Source of the DNA: a phage
DNA: 64,000 bases
Sequence record: PZ386969.1
Direction: 5' to 3' (one strand)
Below the pieces are notes generated by a model, which saw only the letters and a list, made by a program, of their open reading frames with translations, did no database searches and had not been told where the DNA came from. Position 1 is the first letter of the stretch. Each line of letters begins with the position of its first letter. Made by a program: the position numbers and the translations under genes. Shown piece after piece: positions 11,104-56,418 of this stretch.

Positions 11104-11772
11104 TTACTCAATCTGTGCGCCGACGAAGTAATTGATCGTCGCGTCGGATGATTGGAAGTTCACCATCTGTAGATCAGCACAGGCACGCAGAGTGTAGTTG
11201 CCTTCGATCATTTTCAGGTTGGCAACATCCAGCGGCATTACGAAGTCCGGCAGCGCGGTTTCGCCCAGCTCAACAGTGTAGTTGTTGGAGTTGTCCAGGG
11301 TAGTGGTGGTTGCAACCAGGCGAGTTTTGCCACCCTGAGCAACCAGGCGCACAGTCTTGTGTCCGAGGGTAGAACAGGCGCGGGTCAGTTCTTTCATCTT
11401 CTCTGGAGTGATGATCGCTTCAAAGTCGACAGACGGCAGTTCAATGGTGTCAGCCGGAACAACAGTGAGTTCTTTAGCAGAACGCCAGAATTGCAGCTGA
11501 GAGTTTTCGCCTTTCAACAGGATGTAGTCCTGATGGAATTCGGCTTTACCACCTTTGAAGGAAGGCAGGCGCTGGATGGCCAGAAGTTTGGTCAGGTCCA
11601 GGATAGGGAACTCAAACGGGAAGTCTTCTTCGATCTGTGCCACGGCGATAACAGTAGACGAATCGTTAATGCTGCGCAGCATCTTACCCGGTGTCAGGAC
11701 GATAGATGGGTTGATGGTCTCAAAGTTGGCCAGCAACTGAAGTGTACGTTCGGAGAGAGTGATCTCTTGCAT
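11104..11772 (-). CDS. gp45: sliding clamp (gp45-like)
   Basis: N-terminus LQLLANFETINPS resembles T4 gp45 ALLKNFATINSG; 222 aa; GAGGATA RBS. Confidence 0.8.
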   Translation of the reverse strand: MQEITLSERTLQLLANFETINPSIVLTPGKMLRSINDSSTVIAVAQIEEDFPFEFPILDLTKLLAIQRLPSFKGGKAEFHQDYILLKGENSQLQFWRSAKELTVVPADTIELPSVDFEAIITPEKMKELTRACSTLGHKTVRLVAQGGKTRLVATTTTLDNSNNYTVELGETALPDFVMPLDVANLKMIEGNYTLRACADLQMVNFQSSDATINYFVGAQIE

Positions 11773-11904
11773 TTGTATGTATCCTCAAAATATAGTGGGG
11801 GTTCAAGTCATGTTTGACGCAATCTAGTATCGCTGTGTTTTGTTTATAGAACAAGTGGCAAATTGCGCTACGCGTTATTAATAAATGCCTTCGGCATTTA
11901 TGGA

Positions 11905-11951
11905 CTTTATTAAAGATAATAACCTTTATTAAAGATAATAATCTTTATTAA
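11905..11951. repeat. AT-rich tandem direct repeat (19-nt unit CTTTATTAAAGATAATAAY, about 2.5 copies)
   Basis: Direct reading in the gp45 / plus-gene divergent region; hairpin AAATGCC-TTCG-GGCATTT just upstream at 11883-11900. Confidence 0.6.
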
Positions 11952-11980
11952 TCCTATTCGCTTCGCTCATAAAACAAATA

Positions 11981-12008
11981 CTCGTTGTTCGTTAACACTC
12001 ACAACTCG
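11981..12008. repeat. 28-nt motif CTCGTTGTTCGTTAACACTCACAACTCG, second copy at 52651-52678
   Basis: 27 of 28 identical between the two copies. Confidence 0.6.
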
Positions 12009-12014
12009 TATAAT
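11985..12014 (+). promoter_or_regulatory. sigma70-like promoter TTGTTC-N18-TATAAT
   Basis: -35 at 11985-11990, -10 at 12009-12014; about 120 nt upstream of plus gene 12136. Confidence 0.4.
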
Positions 12015-12135
12015 ACCACGCCATTGTTCAACAGGAAAGCAATTTTTTATTCAACAGCAAAATTAATTTAATTTGGTCTAAACATGCATGCGAAATAATA
12101 TGTATGTCAGGTTAACCAACACACGAGAGTAATAT

Positions 12136-12507
12136 ATGAAACAGTTCGTAGGATTATATGCGGTCGGATGCAGTAAGCCAGACGCCATCCTCACCGCAGG
12201 GCAATTTGTCACAGGCACCCCAGTTTATCTGGCACAGCTGGCGTCAGACAAGAACTTACCATCGGAGCCGCGATTTGTCCCTCTTGGCTTGATGACAGGC
12301 CTGAAAGTTGGTCTGTATGTCGGTGTTGTGACGTTTGAAAACGGCATCGAAGCGAAGGTTCTACCATTCAAAATGGGCAGCGAACAAATGCTGAAGGATA
12401 CGATCAGTGAACACCTGAACTCACAATGTCTGGCTTCTCTGGACAAATTGTTCGGCGTAGTATCTGATGAAGGCGAGGCCACCCCCGCCTATGTGAATCA
12501 AGATTAA
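12136..12507 (+). CDS. hypothetical protein (123 aa), plus strand, divergent from gp45
   Basis: ORF in track with ATG; 4-nt convergent overlap with UvsW 3' end; sigma70-like promoter about 125 nt upstream. Confidence 0.5.
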   Translation: MKQFVGLYAVGCSKPDAILTAGQFVTGTPVYLAQLASDKNLPSEPRFVPLGLMTGLKVGLYVGVVTFENGIEAKVLPFKMGSEQMLKDTISEHLNSQCLASLDKLFGVVSDEGEATPAYVNQD

Positions 12508-42705: not shown

Positions 42706-45210
42706 TTACGAGTAAGCACTCTCGAACTTACAAAACCAGGTTGCTCCTTCATCAGTTGTTGACAACCTAAAAACTTGTGTTCCAGCTGCTGTCAAAGATG
42801 GGGTATTGCTTGCTAATTTAACATTTGCACCAAATGTTATTGTTTTAGATGTTGTTGAACAGACAGCCAAAAGAACCTCAACATAACCAATTAGTGTATT
42901 TGTTAATACTGCTGGAGTTATTGTTACATCTCCTGTAACTGTAGCTGCGATGTAAGATGCGTCTGAAAAGTCAGGCGCATAACTTGCTGTTGGCGTCTCG
43001 AACTTTGGATTTCTTACCAATACAGGAACTCCAACATTTTTCCTGAAAATTGTACTATTGCAAACCATATCATACTCTATACCAACAAAATTCTTAGCTG
43101 CAAGTATGTTAGTAAATGTCTGGTCCGCAGAGTAAATATGAGTTATCAGCCTTGCCACCCATGCTGGTGAGTTTGAGTTTTCACACTCAATGAATGAACA
43201 GTTGATACTACCAACGGCGAATGGCATTAGTGATGCCGTATATGAAGATAGCCCTGCGTCATTAAACGCATTCATATTCACAAACGTCTGGCATTGAGAG
43301 AACGTATTACCGGTGGCTCCACCATCAATAAAAAAGCCAATCCCGCCGTTAATATAACCATCTACAGGATCTAAATTAGCTTTCGCGTAGTCCCATTTTG
43401 ATGGAGAATCTGCAAAACATTGATTGAAGGAATTGTTTATTGAGTTCTGTACAACAAAGCAGCATTTCATCCTTGAGTTCTGGTCAGTGACTGTATCGTC
43501 ATACATGCCCCAGTTGTGCACCTTACTAATTCTGTTATTGCCACCACCACGAACCCAGGTACCAAATCGGAAATAACGACCTTCACCCATACTAACCTGA
43601 TGATCGCTACCTTCAACAATGTGGGCTGTGCTGAGTGGATTAGTTGGTTTTAATACACCAACAGCATAAAACTTCAATAGGTGCACACCCATACCGCCAG
43701 CAATATGGATGCCATGACCATCAATATTGGCTACGTAAATGCCATCTAACTTGTTGGCATAACCATCAGATATTTTAAATCCATTAACAGTTTTTGCACG
43801 GGCATCAATTAAAAGATTGCTAATGTGCCCAGCGTATTGATTACCTGTACCTTTATCACACTTTACAGCATAACCAGATGAGTCTGCTATGAAGTCATCT
43901 GTCAGGTATACCCCACCGAAACCAGCATCAATGCTAACATCTCCGTGAATGTGTAGTGTCGTACTGATAGGATATTTCTTCCCATTCAGCCTGATAACTT
44001 TGCTTACAGTGTTAGGTTGTAGCCAGTCAGGATGGTTAGCAGCACTACTTGGTGCATGTTCTAAACCTGTTAAAGCTGCCGCAGCATCAATCGCATCCTG
44101 TAATGATGGATACATATCCGGGTTGACATTTATAATTTTCTTAAGCGCATTGCCAACAGTACCAGTTTCGTAATCAATTGACTTATCAAAACCTGAAAAA
44201 CCTGCTCCTGTAGGTTTAGCCAATTCTGACTTCAATGAAGCATCACCAACACTAACCCATGCACCTGTTCCAACACCACCGGTTGATGTAGTGGTTGAGT
44301 CAGCGGGGACAACTTTAGGTAGTGCACCCTCCCACGTATAGCACTGACCACCAGCGATGTGCCAAACAGCATCCGTTTCACTATTAACTGTTGCACCTTC
44401 TTCAAAGCTACCAGCAACGAGAGATAAACCTGCTTCTGCAAGTAAACGTCTCCACAATTCTCTGGTATTCGACTCTTGATGAGTAGGTAACAAAGTAACA
44501 GTAATATTACCTGGATTGTACGTTAACTGCCCATTACTAACGGATGAGATGTATATGTTAGAGGGTAATGAAGGTAACCCATATGACTTCTGCTCACTAA
44601 CAGAGTAGACAATCTTTTTACCATTCAATAATTGCGTAGTGTCAGTGCTAAGAATTACTTCACTGTCCTTAACGTTAGTTGCACGAGCGATTTCTTGAAT
44701 ACTTCGGTCAAACAACGGACTGATATTCGGTTGTTTAACAGACATTTCAGCGACTACCCAAACGCCTGCAGTCAGCGCAGTTTGTAAAGACACTTTCCCT
44801 GTCGTGCTGTCATAGGAATATTCAATTTCGGGTGTTTTGTACTCACCACCGATATAAAGAGATTGGACTCCATAATATGTGTAATCAGGAGTGAACTCGG
44901 TTTCACCTCCTATAGCCTGAAACTTATAGATTCGAACCCCGGTTTTATAATCTTCTGGAGACAGAATCTTATCAAACAGACAGAACACAACGTCACCTTT
45001 GGATAATGCGCGTCCGAGATTCAACGTATTTCCATCGATTTCAAAGTTGTCTAACGGAACTTGCATGCCACCGTTGATTGTGACTATACCAGTGACAGGG
45101 TAGAAAGGGAGGGAGATAAACTTCTCTCCACCCGTTGCTGTGTAAGTGTATGGAATCTGGTGCGGAGCTGTTACGACCGCTCCAAAGATGCTCTCGACGT
45201 TTCTGGTCAT
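42706..45210 (-). CDS. tailspike-like protein 2 (834 aa)
   Basis: Shared NVKD[ST]EV ... GGVGxGAW.SVGDA module; start moved to ATG MTRNVE after a late-promoter hairpin. Confidence 0.7.
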   Translation of the reverse strand: MTRNVESIFGAVVTAPHQIPYTYTATGGEKFISLPFYPVTGIVTINGGMQVPLDNFEIDGNTLNLGRALSKGDVVFCLFDKILSPEDYKTGVRIYKFQAIGGETEFTPDYTYYGVQSLYIGGEYKTPEIEYSYDSTTGKVSLQTALTAGVWVVAEMSVKQPNISPLFDRSIQEIARATNVKDSEVILSTDTTQLLNGKKIVYSVSEQKSYGLPSLPSNIYISSVSNGQLTYNPGNITVTLLPTHQESNTRELWRRLLAEAGLSLVAGSFEEGATVNSETDAVWHIAGGQCYTWEGALPKVVPADSTTTSTGGVGTGAWVSVGDASLKSELAKPTGAGFSGFDKSIDYETGTVGNALKKIINVNPDMYPSLQDAIDAAAALTGLEHAPSSAANHPDWLQPNTVSKVIRLNGKKYPISTTLHIHGDVSIDAGFGGVYLTDDFIADSSGYAVKCDKGTGNQYAGHISNLLIDARAKTVNGFKISDGYANKLDGIYVANIDGHGIHIAGGMGVHLLKFYAVGVLKPTNPLSTAHIVEGSDHQVSMGEGRYFRFGTWVRGGGNNRISKVHNWGMYDDTVTDQNSRMKCCFVVQNSINNSFNQCFADSPSKWDYAKANLDPVDGYINGGIGFFIDGGATGNTFSQCQTFVNMNAFNDAGLSSYTASLMPFAVGSINCSFIECENSNSPAWVARLITHIYSADQTFTNILAAKNFVGIEYDMVCNSTIFRKNVGVPVLVRNPKFETPTASYAPDFSDASYIAATVTGDVTITPAVLTNTLIGYVEVLLAVCSTTSKTITFGANVKLASNTPSLTAAGTQVFRLSTTDEGATWFCKFESAYS

Positions 45211-45216
45211 TTGAAG

Positions 45217-45253
45217 ATACCCCATAGAGGATTTGCCAATATGGGGTATTTAG
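45217..45253 (-). promoter_or_regulatory. late promoter CTAAATACCCCAT as 5' arm of hairpin; 3' arm ATGGGGTAT 6 nt before ATG 45210
   Basis: Inverted repeat ATACCCCAT / ATGGGGTAT with 15-nt loop. Confidence 0.55.
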
Positions 45254-45290
45254 TCTGAACTAATAAATTTATGAACAAAGGTATAACAAG

Positions 45291-50715: not shown

Positions 50716-52477
50716 AACGCACCTCCGGCTCCACAGTCACAGCACCGATGCGGAGCACCTGATTCTGTGTGGCCTGAATGTTCTGGTCAAGACCGTCTGG
50801 AGACACAATTATTGTCACACCCTCAGTGTTGTAGTTGGATACTATGATACGCTGGAGTTCAACAACGCCAGTCACATAATCAACCATTCCAACAGCTTGT
50901 ACCAGATATTCCTTGGTCGTGTCTGTTGTACTCACCTTGTACATATTCAGGACACCACTGACGTCGCGTATGTAGTAAGTGAATTCGACCTCGGCCGGAA
51001 GCGGCTTAAACCCACTGATACGCACAGAACCAGACGCAATCGAGCGCCCATAATCGAATGTGAAGCTGTCCAGTACCCCATAGTCTGGCTTGAAATGGCG
51101 CTTATACTTCACAGAAGTGATGTTTGACACTATCGATCTGTCCATGTCGGTGATGGCCGACTGCAACTGCTCTTTATCGAACAGTTCGTCGAATCCTTCT
51201 AGGTTCCCCAAGCCCCAGTTGACAACACCGTTCTTCACGACTGTCTTCAACTGCTCTTCGGTATAGGACGTGGAAGTCGGATCCCAGAACACGCGGGTGG
51301 TGACATCAACATAAGTCAGTTCAGCGTCGACAATCTTGGGTGTGATCGTGCCCACATTGTACTTGTCTAACGTCGCCACGATATCTGCCTTCTCAGCGTC
51401 CGAGAGCGCCTCACCAACAGAAGGTATCACAGCAATGTAAACGTATCCGGAGTCAGGCGGAGAGAGCGTGTCGCCGCCATATGCTTTGGCGCGGGAGACG
51501 TTGGAGAACAGACGCTCGGTCAACACAGCATAATCGACTTCGGCCACTGCCGCACCCTCAGCCTGATAAGCCAGCGGAGCAAGGCGCTTGATGTCCTCAA
51601 TGCTCTCTGGGTCCGCACCGCCGGAAGAACGTTCTGACACCAGCTCAACATCCACAAGGTTGAATCCCCCGATGGAAGACGCGGAGGACAAGGTAGTGAT
51701 GTCATTGCCGTCTGCACCAGCTGTCTCCAGATACTGGAGGTACACGACGTTCCCGTCTTCTACTCGCTTACAGATATACCCATCACCGAATTCGAACGTG
51801 TACATCCCGTCCAACCCCAGCTCAACGAAGTAGAGTTGCGCATACTGGCTCAAATCGAACGGGCTGACATATCGTGAGAAGGTAGACCGCACGTCAGATG
51901 TCTCAGATTCCTGCACCTGCACCACCATATGGTCGATGTCCACGGAAGAAGATGGGATCACATAGGTAGAGATCGCGCTACCTTCCACATCATAGGACTT
52001 GTACAGCCAGTTACCCTGTATGAGTTTGATGTTCTCGAACTTGTAAGAGCCGTCTACAAGAGAGGCGCTCACAGGTTGGTCAACCGTGAAGTTGTAGGAT
52101 TTGCCATCCTTCGCCCCAATGAACATCGCGCGGCGATCCATTATAATCGTGTCCGGAGCCGTGCTGGCGTCATATGGAGTGACTGTGACGTTTGCGTACA
52201 GGTACGCCGCCTGGTAGTTGTGAGGGGTGTACGACAAGAACCCGGCCGCAAGACCGACATTAGAACGCTGTTGAGCAGAGTGAAGATGGCTTTCGCCATT
52301 CAGCATGTTCTGCATGAACCCGATAGAGTTGGCATCCGAGGCCAAGATACGCACGATTGCACTGAGACCAGAACCTTCAAAGTCATAATCCTTGAAAGTT
52401 GGATCAGCTTTCATGCGCTTCTTGATAAGATACTCGAAAGCCCTGACATCGAGTGAAGGGACTGTTTGCGTGGCCAT
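50699..52477 (-). CDS. baseplate wedge protein (gp6 / J-like, putative)
   Basis: 592 aa; start moved from TTG 52528 to ATG MATQTV with GGAGA RBS; late motif GCTAAATATC upstream. Confidence 0.55.
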   Translation of the reverse strand: MATQTVPSLDVRAFEYLIKKRMKADPTFKDYDFEGSGLSAIVRILASDANSIGFMQNMLNGESHLHSAQQRSNVGLAAGFLSYTPHNYQAAYLYANVTVTPYDASTAPDTIIMDRRAMFIGAKDGKSYNFTVDQPVSASLVDGSYKFENIKLIQGNWLYKSYDVEGSAISTYVIPSSSVDIDHMVVQVQESETSDVRSTFSRYVSPFDLSQYAQLYFVELGLDGMYTFEFGDGYICKRVEDGNVVYLQYLETAGADGNDITTLSSASSIGGFNLVDVELVSERSSGGADPESIEDIKRLAPLAYQAEGAAVAEVDYAVLTERLFSNVSRAKAYGGDTLSPPDSGYVYIAVIPSVGEALSDAEKADIVATLDKYNVGTITPKIVDAELTYVDVTTRVFWDPTSTSYTEEQLKTVVKNGVVNWGLGNLEGFDELFDKEQLQSAITDMDRSIVSNITSVKYKRHFKPDYGVLDSFTFDYGRSIASGSVRISGFKPLPAEVEFTYYIRDVSGVLNMYKVSTTDTTKEYLVQAVGMVDYVTGVVELQRIIVSNYNTEGVTIIVSPDGLDQNIQATQNQVLRIGAVTVEPEVRYVQRS

Positions 52478-52515
52478 GATAATCTCCATCACCTGAGTTT
52501 GAATATGGTGTTGAA

Positions 52516-52526
52516 GATATTTAGCC
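52516..52526 (-). promoter_or_regulatory. late promoter motif GCTAAATATCT upstream of gp6-like gene
   Basis: Motif about 40 nt before ATG 52477. Confidence 0.45.
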
Positions 52527-52650
52527 AACGGGAATCAAAACGCTCGCGCGCGTTTAATTTATTCGAATATAACTCGCGAGGGGGCTGACGCCCTCGCTCG
52601 TAACACCGCCCTATGCGGGCAGCACCATTCCACAGCCATGGAGGCTGCTT

Positions 52651-52678
52651 CTCGTTGTTCGTTGACACTCACAACTCG
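52651..52678. repeat. 28-nt motif CTCGTTGTTCGTTGACACTCACAACTCG, copy of 11981-12008
   Basis: Located in the strand-switch region between the baseplate block and the plus-strand block. Confidence 0.6.
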
Positions 52679-52842
52679 AAGGGCACTGCGTTAGGATACA
52701 GTTTCTTGATGTTGTAGAAAAGTAGTTTTTACCTATTAATAATCACTGTCATTATTTTATTGGTCATTCCTGTGTTTATATTCAATAAACATACTCCCAA
52801 TATAATAACGGAGACATTTAATCAATCCAGTGAGGCTCCGGA

Positions 52843-53412
52843 ATGCACATTAACACAGCAATCATGAAACACATTATTCCTTTGTTAGCAAAATACGAAG
52901 GGGAACGCGCCGCGAAAATCCCTTTTGGAACAATTACCGAAGAAGTGAAACGCCTGACAGGTAAAAGTATCAATTTCCGTCGCGTTATTGAATCTGCCTT
53001 AGAGTTGGCTCGTTCTGATTTACGAAATCCAACATTTTCATTTAATATTGACATAACTTCTTCGCTTCGACAAGAAATGGAAGAATCATCACAAGCGCGG
53101 CGCAATCGTTTCCGTCATTTATATGTTCGTAACGAATTCTCTGAAGGTCGTGTTGGTATGAAACTGGAGTCTATTCGTTCTGACATTTGCTTCACTGTCA
53201 ACTATGTTTTAGAGCCAGAAAGCGGGCGCATTTATTTTGGCGCGATTATCGGTTTCTATGGGAACTCCATTAATGGTTGGGCAGAACGCGTTGGATTAAA
53301 AGAAACCCAGAACACTCATTCCACACCTTCTACCCATTATATGACGCATGAAGCTGCTGGCGAATATGTTTACCTTCTGCGTCGTGTTGTGAAGTTAGAA
53401 GTGTTAAAATAA
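52843..53412 (+). CDS. hypothetical protein (189 aa)
   Basis: ATG with GAGG RBS; first gene of the plus-strand block. Confidence 0.5.
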   Translation: MHINTAIMKHIIPLLAKYEGERAAKIPFGTITEEVKRLTGKSINFRRVIESALELARSDLRNPTFSFNIDITSSLRQEMEESSQARRNRFRHLYVRNEFSEGRVGMKLESIRSDICFTVNYVLEPESGRIYFGAIIGFYGNSINGWAERVGLKETQNTHSTPSTHYMTHEAAGEYVYLLRRVVKLEVLK

Positions 53413-53469
53413 CGCTTTATTCAATAAATAATTGCAGTAAAGTTATTTGCATGGAAGGGAGGGAACACT

Positions 53470-53616
53470 ATGTTTTACATGATGTTACTCCTCATCCTTC
53501 TGATCGGGATTACCTTTACTCTCCTGGGTCTACTCGATCAGTCCGGTAAACAGACGCCCACTTCGGCGCATCCGGTTTTGTGTGAAGGTTCGTCCGCACT
53601 GCTGTGGGCAGTGTAG
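53470..53616 (+). CDS. small hydrophobic protein (48 aa), absent from ORF track
   Basis: ATG preceded by AAGGGAGGG RBS; MFYMMLLLILLIGITFTLLGLL transmembrane-like segment. Confidence 0.4.
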   Translation: MFYMMLLLILLIGITFTLLGLLDQSGKQTPTSAHPVLCEGSSALLWAV

Positions 53617-55444
53617 CACAAAGAGGAGAGGACTTTTCAAATTAGCTTGGCTGTAGTAAAGTATTAAACACGAGGCGAATAGCGCGGTGGTAGTAGGGCT
53701 GGAACCCGAAACCAGGAAAGCCCAGTCTCAGGGCACCGTGACGAATAGAGGCGTAATATCAACCTCGCTGGTGTCGGTGGACGCACTGACCGTCGGAGAA
53801 CGAAACTCCCTGTTGTAGCGTGATTAGCTCAGAGAAGAGAGCGCCCCGTTGGCGAGTCGACACCAACACATAGGGGAGGTCGGGTCTGCCAAAATCCATC
53901 ACGCCGACAACATTATGAGTCTTCCATAGAGGGTTCATAATGTTGCGTCAAAGGGCAACACAAAGGTTCCTGTTGGTTGAATTAACTTGATTCATAGTTC
54001 CTACTGATCTTCCCGGATTCGAAGGATCACCAACAGGCGAGGCCGGATGCGTAAGTTCCGGTAAATCGATGGTGACGCCCTCGCAAACAAAAATAAAAGG
54101 TTTTATCAATAACGGGTTACAAAGTATAGTTAACCCACTGAACGGCAAGCTGTTTGAGTCCTGGCCACTCATAGTGTTGTGAGACCAAGACAGGTACGTT
54201 TAGGACTCAAACAGGTTTTCGTTTTCGTTGTGCGTGACTTTGCGGGTTTTTAGAAACTGACCAAGCAAATAACTGCTAATGATTCCGAAGTTCTGATGGC
54301 GGCGTAACAGCCTATAAGTCAGTGAGGTCTTCCGATTCCTCATCACCAAATTCGGCGCACTAAAATAGACGGGAGGGTGTGATTAATAAGCTCCCGTCGA
54401 CAATGCCGTTATATCTGACTGTCCAAAGGGGATAAGCTCCTGAGTAAGCAGAGGTGGGTTGCCTAAGTCAGATGGGATGTAAGGTCAGCGCTGGCCAAGC
54501 ATTTGGGTTCGACTCCTAAAAACGGCTCCACATCTTTGAGGATATTCTCACGAGTATCTTGAAAGATGTGAGCGAAGTCTTGCCATCAGCCCTGATCCCT
54601 GGCAGGTGAAGGGCACACAAATCGAAGTGCCTTGACAATTTATCTTAAACCCAAAGGTTGATCTACAAATTTGGGCGGCCAATCCGGTGGACGATAACAG
54701 CATATTGGGCCATACTGTTGAGTCAGGGCACTTCGATTTGTGAACTTTAGAGAGCATTGGGTGAAATAGACCATGCCTTGCAGATTGCGATGCCTACACA
54801 TTCCGGACACTGGTGGGCACCAAGAAGAACTCAGTAGCAGACGAGCCATCAGGGTTAGCTACCCGGCGCGGCGAGGACTGGGAGGCCGAACTAAGGGGAA
54901 ACCCGAGACAGGCGTAGTATTCTCAAGTTCACAAAATGAAGAGCATTTAAAGAGTTCGATTCTCTTTCAGGCCATTCGTGGTGTGATGTGAGTCATGAAT
55001 GTTCTTCATCTTTGGGTGATTCTATGTTGTCGGGCTATCAACCCATGCTTGCTGGAGCAACCAGCGGCTCTGAATCAACCAGCCAGCCTCGTTTGGTCCG
55101 AGCGTTAGAGGACAAGTTGCTTCTACATGGAAGCTGCGAGTTGCGACATTGGTTGCAACTTTGATGGCTCTGGATTTTATAAACCATGTCTATGGGTGAC
55201 GCGGGATCTTTAGTACCAGAGCTATCAAAGTTGTGTCCAACCCGATCTTACAAGCCCGTATCCCGGTCTGGTTAAGACTTGTAAGTGGAAAGCCCTGGAA
55301 AAATAAACGCCTGTGGCGAGGCTATGGTGCAAGCCAAAGACCCACAGAAGCGCGTTGCCGTGAGGCGCACAAACAGGCATGCATGAACTGATCATGCACA
55401 AACGGGATAAAGGGTTGACAGTCCTTGGTTGGTCACAATAATTT

Positions 55445-55521
55445 GGTCCTGTAGCTCAGTCGGTTAGAGCAGTGAACTCATAATTCATTGGTCATTGGTT
55501 CAAACCCAATCAGGATCACCA
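55445..55521 (+). tRNA. tRNA-Met (CAU)
   Basis: Manual cloverleaf: acceptor GGTCCTG/CAGGATC, D-arm GCTC-AGTCGGTTA-GAGC, anticodon loop CTCATAA, T-arm ATTGG-TTCAAAC-CCAAT, encoded CCA. Confidence 0.8.
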
Positions 55522-55655
55522 TATTGAGGGGCGATAGTTTAATGGATAGCTGTCCGGACAGTGAATCCTCATAGAGAACGGCTGGGCGGCCAAACCCAGC
55601 AGGTGAGGTGAAAAGCCTCAGACCCCGCCAATACAGTTTGTTGTAAAATAAATGT

Positions 55656-55683
55656 TTGTTCAATAAACTTTATATGGTATAGT
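55656..55683 (+). promoter_or_regulatory. sigma70-like promoter TTGTTC-N16-TATAGT upstream of tRNA-Asn
   Basis: -10 ends 9 nt before tRNA 5' end. Confidence 0.4.
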
Positions 55684-55692
55684 GATTTGCAA

Positions 55693-55768
55693 GACGATGT
55701 AGTTCAGTCGGTAGAACGGCGGTCTGTTAAACCGTATGTCGCAGGTTCAAGTCCTGCCATCGTCGCCA
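55693..55768 (+). tRNA. tRNA-Asn (GUU)
   Basis: Acceptor GACGATG/CATCGTC, anticodon loop CTGTTAA, T-arm GCAGG-TTCAAGT-CCTGC, encoded CCA. Confidence 0.8.
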
Positions 55769-56025
55769 GACAATGGGTGTGAACGAAAGTGAATAGGCAT
55801 AAAGTACGCGACCGACAAGCTCCAAGCCTCTGTCCAATAGCCGAACGGAATCCGAAGACGACGATAGTAGCGCCCACCAAATTCAGAGTGTAGAGGCTAC
55901 AGTAGTGCGCACCTCACGGGTTGCTACACCGGACACTCTGATACAAATCTACCGCCGCGTGGATTAGCTGAGGAAGGATGGCCGATGTCCTCGAGCGTGG
56001 CCCAGCACGCAGCGGCAGACCAAAT

Positions 56026-56109
56026 GTGAGTGTGGCAGAGCGGTCGAATGCAGGAGACTGTAAATCTCCCCGTAACAGCGCGGTGGTTCGAATCCATCCA
56101 CTCACACCA
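56026..56109 (+). tRNA. tRNA-Tyr (GUA), long variable arm
   Basis: Acceptor GTGAGTG/CACTCAC, anticodon loop CTGTAAA, T-arm GGTGG-TTCGAAT-CCATC, encoded CCA. Confidence 0.75.
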
Positions 56110-56329
56110 AACACAGTAAGCGTTGCAGCCAGCTGTGTATAAAATGGGGTGACTCCACATCGGAAACGATGCCCCAACTTCCAGAAATGGTCGGGCGCAA
56201 AGTCTGTAAAGTTCCAGGAGATCGAACCAGAAGGCACTGGTCGCCAGTTAACCAATCGGCGCTGAGAAGCGCGGGGAGTTGGGCTACGGCAGATCAAATG
56301 CTCAATCGGGTGTGAAGCCCGTCCAAATT

Positions 56330-56418
56330 GGAAGGTTGCCCGAGAGGTTTAAGGGACTCGACTGCTAATCGAGTGGGGCTTTTAGCCCCCGAAGGTTCGA
56401 ATCCTTCACCTTCCGCCA
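56330..56418 (+). tRNA. tRNA-Ser (GCU), long variable arm
   Basis: Acceptor GGAAGGT/ACCTTCC, anticodon loop CTGCTAA, variable-arm hairpin GGGGC/GCCCC, T-arm GAAGG-TTCGAAT-CCTTC, encoded CCA. Confidence 0.8.

Follow-up and report, generated by a model that had tools for sequence, protein, structure and literature searches.

HK022 carries two cis-acting antiterminator stem-loop sites per genome, putL and putR, which are located downstream of its early promoters. The put RNAs consist of two adjacent stem-loops with specific bulges and show covariation between the copies. REP/MITE hairpins and the subterminal hairpins of IS200/IS605 and RAYT are recognized as single strands by HUH/Y1 transposases. 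In T4-like phages, a stem-loop and a sigma-70-like promoter are combined in intergenic modules (PeSL/PmSL) that are repeated in the genome (PMC2839356, PMC4122927). In a PeSL, a terminator stem-loop lies just upstream of a near-consensus -35/-10 pair, after which come the Shine-Dalgarno sequence and the start codon of the next gene. PeSLs occur in many copies, are enriched in hyperplastic regions and mark indels between close relatives, and the cassettes have been implicated in recombination between otherwise unrelated flanks (PMC2839356, PMC4122927). The T4 replication origins oriF (uvsY) and oriG (gene 34) each combine a MotA-dependent promoter with any unwinding element and share no common motif; R-loops form without a requirement for any particular sequence, and another unwinding element can take the place of the native one (PMC3016281).

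We analyzed a stretch of 64,000 nt from the sequence record PZ386969.1 (the window), which belongs to an Ag3-like phage of the Ackermannviridae. This family (ViI, CBA120, Det7, Ag3, LIMEstone and relatives) includes common biocontrol and therapy phages. We found neither a published map of its promoters, noncoding RNAs or replication origins nor a paper on the motif described below or on transcript or origin mapping in these phages. An initial sequence-only reading had pointed out a 28-nt motif which is shared, with one mismatch, by two strand-switch regions. The two copies were confirmed on the plus strand: CTCGTTGTTCGTTAACACTCACAACTCG at 11981-12008 (site 1) and CTCGTTGTTCGTTGACACTCACAACTCG at 52651-52678 (site 2) differ only at position 14 (A/G). 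In 100 dinucleotide-preserving shuffles, no such pair occurred (0 matches), and identity is lost abruptly beyond either edge of the 28-mer.

Each site is an intergenic region between divergent genes. Site 1 is located between the genes for uvsW and gp45 and is flanked by the gp45 sliding clamp gene (11104..11772, minus strand) and a small plus-strand gene (12136..12507). Site 2 is flanked by a baseplate wedge gene (minus strand, ATG at 52477) and a plus-strand gene (52843..53412). It is the main divergent strand switch and, in a complete related genome, the global minimum of the cumulative GC skew. Next to both sites are 100-nt windows that rank among the most AT-rich of the genome. The phage carries a T4-like replication set (UvsW, a gp59-like loader, gp41/61-like proteins and RNase H). 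The two flanking plus-strand genes were considered as regulators and rejected: they have no Pfam domain and no recognizable DNA-binding domain, are assigned to PHROGs whose function is unknown and show no mutual homology.

The 28-mer forms the core of a larger unit, an imperfect hairpin of about 34 nt (hairpin A) on the minus strand:

11978..12011, minus strand: hairpin A at site 1, the 28-mer plus three flanking pairs ATA/TAT
52648..52681, minus strand: hairpin A at site 2, the 28-mer plus three flanking pairs CTT/AAG

The inverted repeat GTTGT...ACAAC, which had already been seen in the motif, is present and matters, but it is only the middle part of this longer hairpin. On the minus strand, site 2 reads cuu-CGAG-UUGU-GA-GU-GUCA-AC-GA-ACAA-CGAG-aag, and the consensus is 5'-(3 flank pairs)-C-GA-GUUGU-GA-Gy-loop-rC-GA-ACAAC-GA-G-(3 flank pairs)-3'. 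The invariant TC/TC positions, which count as two internal "mismatches", form tandem G·A pairs when read on the minus strand, in the favorable 5'-YGAR-3' context. Sequence and length of the apical loop are variable (GUUA, GUCA, UUU, GAA, GAAA, GCGG, GGCC, UAUGA), but its closing pairs persist, and the distance between the arms ranges from 5 to 10 nt among homologues. The outermost flank pair at site 2 (52681/52648) competes with the first pair of the adjacent hairpin B1 (see below).

Pairing is maintained in 93.8% of the cells over 12 distinct instances from independent contexts, compared with 79.7 +/- 2.1% for shuffled sequences (0/500 reach the observed value). The covariation score is 0.364 versus 0.131 for shuffled sequences (0/500), and slid controls gave 25-53%; much of this signal comes from paralogous or distant copies, because most pairs never vary within the phage family (in the site-2 block, 19 of the 24 pairs are invariable). 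Paralogous or very distant copies were found with patterns that fix 16-20 bases. Across contexts, two-sided changes affect 5 of the 11 pairs of hairpin A. They occur in the core pairs 1-28 (C-G/U-A) and 12-17 (U-A/C-G/A-U) and in the flank pairs (CTT/AAG, ATA/TAT, TGG/CCG), the latter being unconstrained by any search pattern.

The pairing is strand-asymmetric. Of 360 cells in the site-2 block, 357 are paired on the minus strand versus 301 on the plus strand. The one-sided substitutions in this block are without exception G·U-compatible, but only on the minus strand, while the pairs are broken on the plus strand; similarly, the A->G variant of site 1 preserves a U·G pair on the minus strand only. 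The predicted RNA fold is also better on the minus strand, at site 2 (-48.9 kcal/mol, z -2.86, versus -41.0, z -1.61), at site 1 (-14.2 versus -5.7) and for the 28-mer by itself (-6.9 versus -3.4), which is thermodynamically a weak hairpin. Strand asymmetry cannot separate RNA from displaced single-stranded DNA, because the non-template strand has the RNA sequence.

In Agtrevirus, Limestonevirus and Kuttervirus-type phages, both sites are conserved; Taipeivirus shares site 2. At site 2, the 28-mer is nearly invariant among 271 phage records from these four genera. Site 1 is also kept in a divergent contig (L120). The block that contains hairpin A at site 2 has an identity of 87-95%, while that of the adjoining coding DNA is mostly 74-84%. 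Each genome has two copies, which occupy the same loci across at least three or four genera. A recombination footprint, as had been proposed, therefore fits poorly; since the loci are fixed across genera, the copies are old maintained features rather than scars. Recombination near the element was observed, with a mosaic junction that maps to the block and a chimeric contig (L128), and the element may have a secondary role as a recombination hotspot.

No further copies were detected within the genome by mismatch search, self-BLAST or covariance model. A third copy of the 28-mer is absent from the window even when up to 8 mismatches are allowed. With filters switched off, the covariance model of hairpin A scored 57.6 and 55.2 bits in the window, followed by 12.9 bits for the next hit, and it detected no more than the two copies in either the window or the complete related genome. 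What recurs at a third locus (site 3, RPN242, ~45.1 kb) are modules B and C only (see below). The two copies are 40 kb apart and do not form a CRISPR-type array. A search of 185,579 species genomes with the hairpin pattern gave no matches outside MITE-like contexts. The sequence-only reading had regarded a lack of additional copies as counting against the element. Such a lack was indeed found (two copies per genome), but it is uninformative, because conservation across genera and covariation show that the element is under selection.

Hairpin A is the first module of a noncoding block of ~180 nt, which is conserved throughout the family and better than the surrounding genes. The first elements on the minus strand are a -10-like TATnnT and hairpin A, to which hairpins B1 and B2 are added only at site 2; mini-hairpin C, an AT-rich tract and the CGCGCGAG element come next, before a candidate late promoter and the gene. 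At site 2, the elements around hairpin A are the following:

52716..52742, minus strand: invariant upstream block TTATTAATAGGyArAAACTACTTTTCT, with a weak -35-like TTTTCT (52721..52716), 17 nt from the -10
52693..52698, minus strand: putative -10 hexamer TATCCT, assigned by its conservation pattern
52633..52648, minus strand: hairpin B1, GCAGCC-uccau-GGCUGy, with a closing pair that alternates between G-C and G·U
52603..52626, minus strand: hairpin B2, GCUGCCC-gcaua-GGGCGGU
52573..52600, minus strand: module C', 28 nt, CGAG-CGAGGG-cgucagcc-CCCUCG-CGAG
52538..52572, minus strand: AT-rich tract, then the conserved CGCGCGAG (module D) and the small palindrome AAACGCgcgcgaGCGTTT
52518..52524, minus strand: CTAAATA, similar to T4-type late promoters, ~45 nt before the wedge ATG (52477)

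The -10-like hexamer is TATCCT, TATCTT, TATCGT or TATGCT across genera; T1, A2, T3 and T6 are fixed, while the middle is variable. From this hexamer, transcription would start near 52686 (the G of GTGCCCTT). Hairpin B2, which is also present at the third locus outside the window, shows the changes A-U<->G·U, U·G<->C-G and U-A<->C-G. Most relatives have a 13-nt mini-hairpin, CGAGCG(A/T)AGCGAG, in place of C'. CTAAATA, which we take to be a late promoter by analogy with the T4 consensus TATAAATA, is nearly invariant in all relatives, including those which lack hairpin A. For the plus-strand gene at site 2, a separate conserved TTCAATAA...TATAAT element exists at a distance of ~100 nt, so this gene does not need the 28-mer. 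No conserved reading frame passes through the block: minus-strand frames through the motif are broken at indels, and a plus-strand mini-ORF found in some phages (MEAASRCSLTLTTRRALR) was rejected, its ATG being lost in Taipeivirus-type sequences. Three hairpins in the window share the form CGAG-[palindrome]-CGAG, each with a length of 28 nt. This form was rejected as a genome-wide family, because counts do not exceed those in shuffled sequences and no good examples were found besides these three, at the two loci.

At site 1, hairpin A is accompanied by three elements:

12009..12015, both strands: AT-rich heptamer abutting hairpin A, with TATAAT on the plus strand (12009-12014) and TATTAT on the minus strand (12015..12010)
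11958..11968, minus strand: module C, GAGCGAAGCGA, 12 nt downstream of hairpin A on this strand
11905..11952, strand not assigned: 2.5 tandem copies of the 19-bp AT-rich CTTTATTAAAGATAATAAy, between module C and the hairpin upstream of gp45 (11881-11901)

In the minus orientation, the heptamer is preceded by a -35-like TTTCCT (12038..12033) with a 17-nt spacer. Its Kuttervirus-like versions are TATAGT and TACTAT. CTTTyCT-N15-17-TAnnnT-like arrangements precede site 1 as well as the paralogous site 3. Hairpin A directly adjoins the promoter-like hexamer at site 1, whereas at site 2 the hexamer precedes it by 15 nt. The overlap of the motif with a -35/-10 pair at site 1, which the sequence-only reading had noted, is literally present on the plus strand: TTGTTC (11985-11990) is followed after an 18-nt spacer by TATAAT (12009-12014). 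It is weak, however, as the -35 matches at only 3 of 6 positions, and a consensus promoter scan called neither this pair nor the putative minus-strand promoters. In Kuttervirus-like phages, where the motif is 1 nt shorter, the pair is TTGCTC-17-TATAGT. At site 2, a -10 is indeed missing, since AAGGGC comes after the motif on the plus strand. The earlier view that conservation is not explained by promoter function alone is supported.

Hairpin A looks like an undescribed structured signal which is read from one strand. As the best explanation, which we hold tentatively, we suggest that the block is a strand-specific structured RNA leader or small RNA of the minus strand. The single-stranded hairpin would act on this strand, which is the sense strand of the downstream genes, and we infer RNA, rather than displaced single-stranded DNA, to be its active form. 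Host RNA polymerase would initiate at the conserved -10 (at ~52686 for site 2), and the product would be a structured leader or a short noncoding RNA. Hairpin A, close to the 5' end, could serve as a module for sequence-specific recognition or stability and might govern the fate of the transcript, e.g., by protecting it from 5'-end-dependent decay. Alternatively, it might allow polymerase, with the help of a factor, to read through the hairpins downstream and enter the wedge and gp45 operons. No clear intrinsic terminator that would delimit a discrete small RNA was found. At site 1, a start ~7 nt downstream of the -10-like hexamer would be situated inside the 5' arm and would remove the outer helix. 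The outer helix and the flanking pairs are nonetheless conserved at this site, so a role at the DNA level or in a read-through transcript fits better than a start at that promoter.

Such a DNA-level role, which avoids the start-site problem at site 1, is the basis of an alternative that we consider possible, if on the doubtful side: hairpin A may be a single-stranded DNA signal at a T4-type replication origin, with sites 1, 2 and 3 as origins. A promoter would fire into the block, the RNA would form an R-loop toward the AT-rich tract, and the displaced minus-sense strand would fold into A, B and C, which might stabilize the R-loop or recruit a loader or primosome. Covariation and strand asymmetry fit equally well with this, as the displaced non-template strand has the sequence of the RNA. 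Site 2 coincides with the main strand switch and the minimum of the cumulative GC skew, although both are confounded with the direction of transcription. AT-rich windows are found at sites 1 and 2, with the 19-bp tandem repeats at site 1 being iteron-like, but the AT-rich tract begins only 60-115 nt downstream of the putative start, after the GC-rich hairpins. At sites 2 and 3, the putative promoters are directed into late baseplate genes; because these already have their own late promoters, the transcripts would be without an obvious coding purpose. The phage encodes a T4-like replication set, with site 1 placed between uvsW and gp45. T4 oriF and oriG consist of a promoter and a downstream AT-rich unwinding element and act via an R-loop that leaves the non-template strand single-stranded; the extreme conservation of hairpin A is, however, not predicted by this model, as T4 R-loops need no specific sequence (PMC3016281). 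In addition, invariant G·U-type pairs, as found in B2, are more typical of RNA. If true, the structured RNA and the origin would each offer a first way into the logic by which the family organizes early regulation or replication. The block, located at the main genomic strand switch and upstream of the clamp/clamp-loader operon, would then also be a conserved target for engineering or diagnostics.

The 28-mer is not confined to phages. It occurs inside elements of ~200 nt with long terminal inverted repeats, which are present at different chromosomal sites in uncultured Alphaproteobacteria and an Acidobacteriaceae MAG. One bacterial copy (L125) is identical at 28 of 28 positions to the site-1 copy of RPN242. 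In the bacterial elements, hairpin A and a C-like mini-hairpin are found at equivalent places in the two arms. Rfam returned only sub-threshold, generic long-hairpin noise for the bacterial element. Other pattern matches (L119, L121, L122, L124, L127, L141, L143) are likely due to chance or low complexity and were not used. The 28/28 identity with a repeat from uncultured soil Alphaproteobacteria is hard to explain other than by a shared recognition partner or by horizontal transfer. It is tempting to speculate, though we regard this as rather unlikely, that hairpin A is an unrecognized, sequence-specific single-strand signal built on tandem G·A pairs, which a conserved cellular or phage factor reads in the phage family and in bacterial mobile palindromes alike. 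In the phage, R-loops of early transcripts might then form at sites marked by hairpin A, which would define the replication origins of Ackermannviridae, or hairpin A might load a factor by which early transcription is coupled to the neighboring late promoters. If hairpin A were such a general signal, it would be of interest beyond phages.

The sharing with bacterial elements has another reading, namely that hairpin A is the vestige of a mobile MITE-like palindrome from bacteria, which came into an ancestral Ackermannviridae genome and has little or no function in the phage or is mainly a recombination substrate. The identical 28-mers and the equivalent arm positions of A and the C-like mini-hairpin are consistent with this, as are the mosaic sharing of modules among the three phage loci, the location of the mosaic junction and of the chimeric contig at the block, and the CGAG-[palindrome]-CGAG form, which is reminiscent of short direct repeats around an insert. 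The phage copies, however, lack flanking terminal inverted repeats, and with two copies per genome there is no sign of spread. Near-invariance at fixed positions in four genera, above that of the neighboring genes, is unlike a functionless relic, and compensatory changes are unexpected for one, so we consider a vestige improbable.

A double-stranded operator, at which a dimeric phage or host regulator would control divergent promoters, is more improbable again. An imperfect palindrome of operator-like size within divergent promoter regions is what one would look for, two copies per genome would be normal, and the site 1 copy covers the plus-strand -35 and spacer as well as a possible minus-strand promoter start region. 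For a dimer, however, the spacing of the arms should not vary by up to 5 bp among homologues, and only 8 of 14 positions are symmetric, while the non-symmetric TC/TC is invariant. The sequences of the pairing flanks differ from site to site, one-sided changes are strand-biased, the placement relative to promoter-like elements differs between the sites, and the neighboring plus-strand genes, which are unrelated, lack a recognizable DNA-binding domain. The suggestion of a regulator binding site is, in this double-stranded form, a poor fit to arms 5-10 nt apart, to paired co-changes and to G·U/G·T tolerance on one strand. It is hardly credible that the motif is simply the -35 and spacer of a sigma-70 promoter for the small plus-strand gene at site 1, with site 2 as a decayed duplicate: this lone gene needs some promoter in its intergenic region and both TTGTTC-18-TATAAT and the Kuttervirus-like TTGCTC-17-TATAGT are promoter-like, but the -35 has 3 of 6 matches and is not called by the scan, a spacer is not expected to be invariant or covarying, the copy without a -10 (site 2) is the one kept more widely and strictly, and bacterial repeats have the 28-mer without a promoter context.

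Several described elements were compared with hairpin A and rejected. An intrinsic terminator would have a GC-rich stem and then a U/T run, while the bases after hairpin A are AAGCAG at site 2 and TATTTG at site 1 when the minus strand is read, and AAGGGC and TATAAT, respectively, when the plus strand is read, and terminator scans were negative. Rfam scans of the three phage loci gave no match with gathering thresholds and only sub-threshold noise with permissive ones; in the window, only the four tRNAs passed the gathering threshold. By inspection, a kink-turn, which has a 3-nt bulge beside the G·A pairs, does not apply, as both internal loops are symmetric (2x2) without a bulge, nor does a hammerhead with its CUGAnGA...GAAA core, as the equivalents of C3, G5 and A6 are G, U and G; neither has an Rfam match. 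The primosome-site region of ColE1/pBR322, a comparison sequence that was verified as real, scores 2.4 bits with the hairpin A model and folds no better than its shuffles. With the lac operator, TTGTGAGCG is common, but on inspection the gap between the half-sites is too long by 4 bp, and the second half-site is different. The similarity of GUUCGUUAACAC (plus strand) to a NusB/E boxA falls into the freely variable apical part.

Among the known systems, PeSLs resemble these loci in being short conserved intergenic modules; modules are shared among loci here too, and a mosaic junction and a chimeric contig were observed. Unlike a PeSL, hairpin A has two copies, is located downstream of a promoter-like element or overlaps it, and is 115-200 nt away from the nearest start codons. 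It neighbors core replication and baseplate genes, is fixed across genera and has internal tandem G·A pairs. Hairpin A thus differs from PeSLs in layout, copy number and location and is not counted among them. With the T4 origins, the loci share a candidate promoter that points into a noncoding AT-rich region near replication or late genes, the small number of sites and the same replication and UvsW machinery. They differ in their specific, conserved series of hairpins and in the AT-rich tract being 60-115 nt downstream, and no MotA-type box is evident at sites 1 and 2. REP and IS200 hairpins are, like hairpin A, imperfect palindromes of 20-40 nt with conserved mismatches, and A itself is found in bacterial MITE-like elements, but the phage has two fixed copies without a transposase or a GTAG-type guide tetranucleotide. 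The put sites of HK022 have no similarity to hairpin A in sequence or structure, and the putative start at site 1 would truncate hairpin A. In arrangement, both systems have two copies of covarying stem-loops, each downstream of an early promoter (a putative one for hairpin A) and on the strand that is, or for hairpin A would be, transcribed, followed by terminator-like hairpins and then by genes.

The 28-nt motif is present on the plus strand at 11981-12008 (site 1) and 52651-52678 (site 2), as the sequence-only reading had claimed, with position 14 (A/G) as the sole difference. The chance expectation for such a match is low (0 in 100 dinucleotide-preserving shuffles), and similarity is lost sharply at either edge of the 28-mer. 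A third copy is not found in the window at up to 8 mismatches. The window is ~97% identical to Ag3-like Ackermannviridae phages, e.g., Escherichia phage vB_EcoM-RPN242, and the genome-wide search for further copies that had been proposed returned only the same two sites in the complete RPN242 genome (assembled from four pieces). With a covariance model of the hairpin described below, the window yields two copies and no more (57.6 and 55.2 bits; runner-up 12.9), and RPN242 likewise yields two. The neighbouring genes are as follows.

Site 1, left, minus strand: gp45 sliding-clamp gene, heading a clamp / clamp-loader / regA cluster
Site 1, right, plus strand: lone 123-aa gene beside uvsW
Site 2, left, minus strand: baseplate wedge (gp6-like) gene, the first of a long minus-strand structural gene block
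Site 2, right, plus strand: 189-aa gene

The actual unit is a hairpin (hairpin A), which is longer than the 28-mer and strand-specific. The flanks of the 28-mer are unrelated between sites, yet at any one site the two flanks can pair with each other (site 2, CTT...AAG; site 1, ATA...TAT; bacterial copies, (T)GG...CC(G)). When pairs are counted with the structure ...((((..(((((..((....))..)))))..))))... over 12 distinct instances from independent contexts (the sequences not being phylogenetically independent, and the distant ones having been found by patterns that fix 16-20 bases), 93.8% of cells are paired versus 79.7 +/- 2.1% in shuffles (0/500 reach the observed value), and the covariation score is 0.364 versus 0.131 in the control (0/500). 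With the partners slid as a control, 25-53% of cells are paired. Changes on both sides are seen in 5 of the 11 pairs; within the phage family, 19 of 24 pairs never vary. The apex varies in sequence and length (GUUA, GUCA, UUU, GAA, GAAA, GCGG, GGCC, UAUGA), its closing pairs being kept despite this. Four invariant positions give apparent mismatches on the plus strand (TC/TC, twice). The minus strand has two tandem G·A pairs there, in a 5'-YGAR-3' context, in which such pairs are stabilizing.

In the site-2 block, 357/360 cells are paired on the minus strand versus 301/360 on the plus strand, and all one-sided substitutions are G·U-compatible on the minus strand only. The site-1 A to G variant likewise retains a U·G pair on that strand only. 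Folding energies (kcal/mol) are as follows.

Site 2 block: minus strand -48.9 (z -2.86); plus strand -41.0 (z -1.61)
Site 1 block: minus strand -14.2 (z -2.02); plus strand -5.7 (z -1.74)
28-mer alone: minus strand -6.9; plus strand -3.4

Site 2, with ~180 nt around it, occurs in 271 phage records (Kuttervirus, Agtrevirus, Limestonevirus, Taipeivirus). Its 28-mer is near-invariant across these four genera, differing only in its first and last bases, which switch as a pair (terminal C...G to T...A), and in one loop base. Site 1 is kept in Agtrevirus and LIMEstone1 and in a divergent contig with gp45-gp44-gp62 synteny (L120), where the inner pair is A-T; in Kuttervirus-like contigs the variant is 27 nt long and its inner stem-loop differs. 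Two further viral contigs, L123 and L015 (the latter in a T7-like context), contain the hairpin core. Several other pattern matches resemble chance matches and were put aside.

Hairpin A is a family-wide, strand-specific, tandem-G·A hairpin at the head of a conserved noncoding block. At site 2, the parts of this block are, in minus-strand order:

1, minus strand: invariant TTATTAATAGGyArAAACTACTTTTCT
2, minus strand: hexamer T-A-T-n-n-T, its middle varying by genus (TATCCT, TATCTT, TATCGT, TATGCT)
3, minus strand: GTGCCCTT, between hexamer and hairpin A
4, minus strand: hairpin A
5, minus strand: hairpin B1 (GCAGCC/GGCUGy)
6, minus strand: hairpin B2
7, minus strand: module C, CGAGCG(A/T)AGCGAG in most phages, expanded in the window to another 28-nt CGAG-palindrome-CGAG (52573-52600)
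8, minus strand: AT-rich tract
9, minus strand: CGCGCGAG
10, minus strand: near-invariant CTAAATA, ~45 nt upstream of the wedge ATG, which we take to resemble a T4-type late promoter

The stretch from the putative promoter through A and B is 87-95% identical between genera, versus mostly 74-84% for adjoining coding DNA, and no conserved reading frame runs through it. Two distant IMG/VR contigs (L054 and L055; wedge protein 65% identical) retain module C (CCGAGCGTAGCGAG), the CGCGCGAG element and CTAAATA and have another hairpin, TTGAAC-gagta-GTTCGA, in the position of hairpin A; the architecture thus predates the specific 28-mer.

At site 1, a comparable hexamer (TATTAT or TACTAT) abuts hairpin A, and module C is found 12 nt downstream, followed by AT-rich repeats; Kuttervirus-like phages also have the CGCGCGAG element there. 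Upstream of gp45, 11905-11952 consists of 2.5 tandem copies of a 19-bp AT-rich unit (CTTTATTAAAGATAATAAy) and is among the most AT-rich regions of the genome. Beside these repeats lies a perfect hairpin, ATAAATGCC-ttcg-GGCATTTAT (11881-11901).

A paralogous noncoding locus (site 3) lies between baseplate genes at ~44.9-45.26 kb of RPN242 (44900-45260 in the genome part L003) and has modules B and C without hairpin A. Its order is terminator, extended -10 promoter (TGcTATAAT), ~110 nt of unrelated sequence, modules B and C, AT-rich tract, hairpin GGAAGCagaGCTTCC and late-promoter-like CATAAATA. BLAST place counts suggest that it is restricted to Aglimvirinae. Module C looks like a truncated hairpin A, since hairpin A of one bacterial copy, L139, has at its apex GAGCGAAGCGA, identical to module C.

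Bacterial copies were retrieved by pattern scans of metagenomes and species genomes. In uncultured Alphaproteobacteria MAGs (L139, L142) and similar contigs (L125, L129, L130), the hairpin is contained in ~200-nt MITE-like elements with ~30-bp terminal inverted repeats (TTCCCCTCTCCCCTTGTGGGAGAGG...), inserted at unrelated intergenic chromosomal sites in GC-rich contigs. Hairpin A is in one arm and a mini-hairpin, CGAGCGAAGCGAG, in the other. An Acidobacteriaceae MAG (L140) also carries the hairpin in an element of ~200 nt whose long termini are inverted, with different flanks. One bacterial copy is identical to the RPN242 site-1 copy (28/28), and the T...A outer-pair switch and pairing-preserving apex changes also occur among the bacterial copies. 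In the ColE1-type plasmid pAK51 (L144, 133-150, upstream of rop), GTTGTTtaccCTCACAAC has 14 bases in common with the motif arms; it has neither an inner stem nor CGAG closures, the hairpin model gives it 9.7 bits, and the likeness is probably a coincidence.

We favour the reading of hairpin A as part of a structured RNA, whether leader or short noncoding transcript, on three grounds: the -10-like hexamer is conserved, several hairpins rich in G·U pairs follow one another, and there is a thermodynamic signal. The minus-strand transcript would start near 52686, from the hexamer. A T4-type R-loop origin is a serious rival because the displaced non-template DNA strand, which would then be the hairpin-bearing form, has the same sequence as the RNA. 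The main strand switch is at site 2, where GC skew also reaches its global minimum, the sites are adjoined by AT-rich tracts and iteron-like repeats, and T4 oriF and oriG are promoter-plus-unwinding-element units (PMC3016281). Moreover, the promoters postulated at sites 2 and 3 are directed into late genes for which late promoters are already present, and a transcript starting where predicted at site 1 would begin inside the hairpin. R-loop formation in T4, however, does not need a specific sequence.

Arm spacing that varies, flanks that pair although unrelated, wobble changes biased to one strand and G·A positions that never change argue for a one-strand hairpin and against a promoter spacer or a duplex operator, so that the earlier proposal of a regulator binding site, in the latter sense, fits poorly. 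A promoter spacer fits the pairing, strand bias and spacing poorly, and conservation is indeed not due to promoter function alone. A separate conserved element, TTCAATAA...TATAAT, belongs to the plus-strand gene at site 2; it lies ~100 nt away and resembles other promoter cassettes in the genome, and the motif is therefore not the promoter of that gene. Positions fixed across genera speak against a recombination scar, the footprint proposed earlier, and against a drifting relic.

A mosaic junction separates 52478-53232 from 52088-52477. The intergenic block and the plus-strand gene at site 2 are 94-99% identical to Kuttervirus Det7, whereas for the wedge gene next to them identity is 97% with Agtrevirus ChubbyThor and just 77% with Det7. 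This pattern implies that genera have recombined at, or close to, the conserved late-promoter / leader sequence. In metagenome contig CYGL01000298.1 (L128, ~position 1504), the site-1 left flank, A and C are joined to the site-3 right flank exactly at the shared module C; the contig is a natural recombinant or else a chimera that assembly produced across a ~25-nt repeat. Terminator-promoter cassettes (a GC hairpin, then ACTTCTTCAATA-N8-10-TATACTTCATTCC) recur in RPN242 at ~48.1, 61.2 and 95.3 kb (L003/L004), the last of which should match ~18.3 kb in the window. They appear to be a phage-specific promoter class, similar to the TTCAATAA...TATAAT before the plus-strand gene at site 2. Further along, ~2 kb (53413-55444) without an ORF of at least 80 aa precede four tRNA genes (Met, Asn, Tyr, Ser; 55445-56418), only two of which (Met, Ser) are annotated in RPN242.

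The motif has no match among Rfam families, and literature searches found neither a published description nor transcript or origin maps for Ackermannviridae phages. Likenesses to lacO, boxA, the hammerhead core, the K-turn (all by inspection) and the ColE1 primosome-site region were examined and dismissed. The observation exceeds the sequence-only reading, as the 28-mer belongs to a family-wide hairpin with an unexpected twin in bacterial repeat elements. Hairpin A may best be described by likeness to known phage cis-elements, as a structured leader or an origin hairpin. The nearest described phage element is the PeSL cassette of T4-like phages, a stem-loop plus early promoter that is repeated and recombinogenic (PMC4122927), from which the hairpin A block differs in how its parts are ordered, how many copies there are, where they lie and how stable they are.
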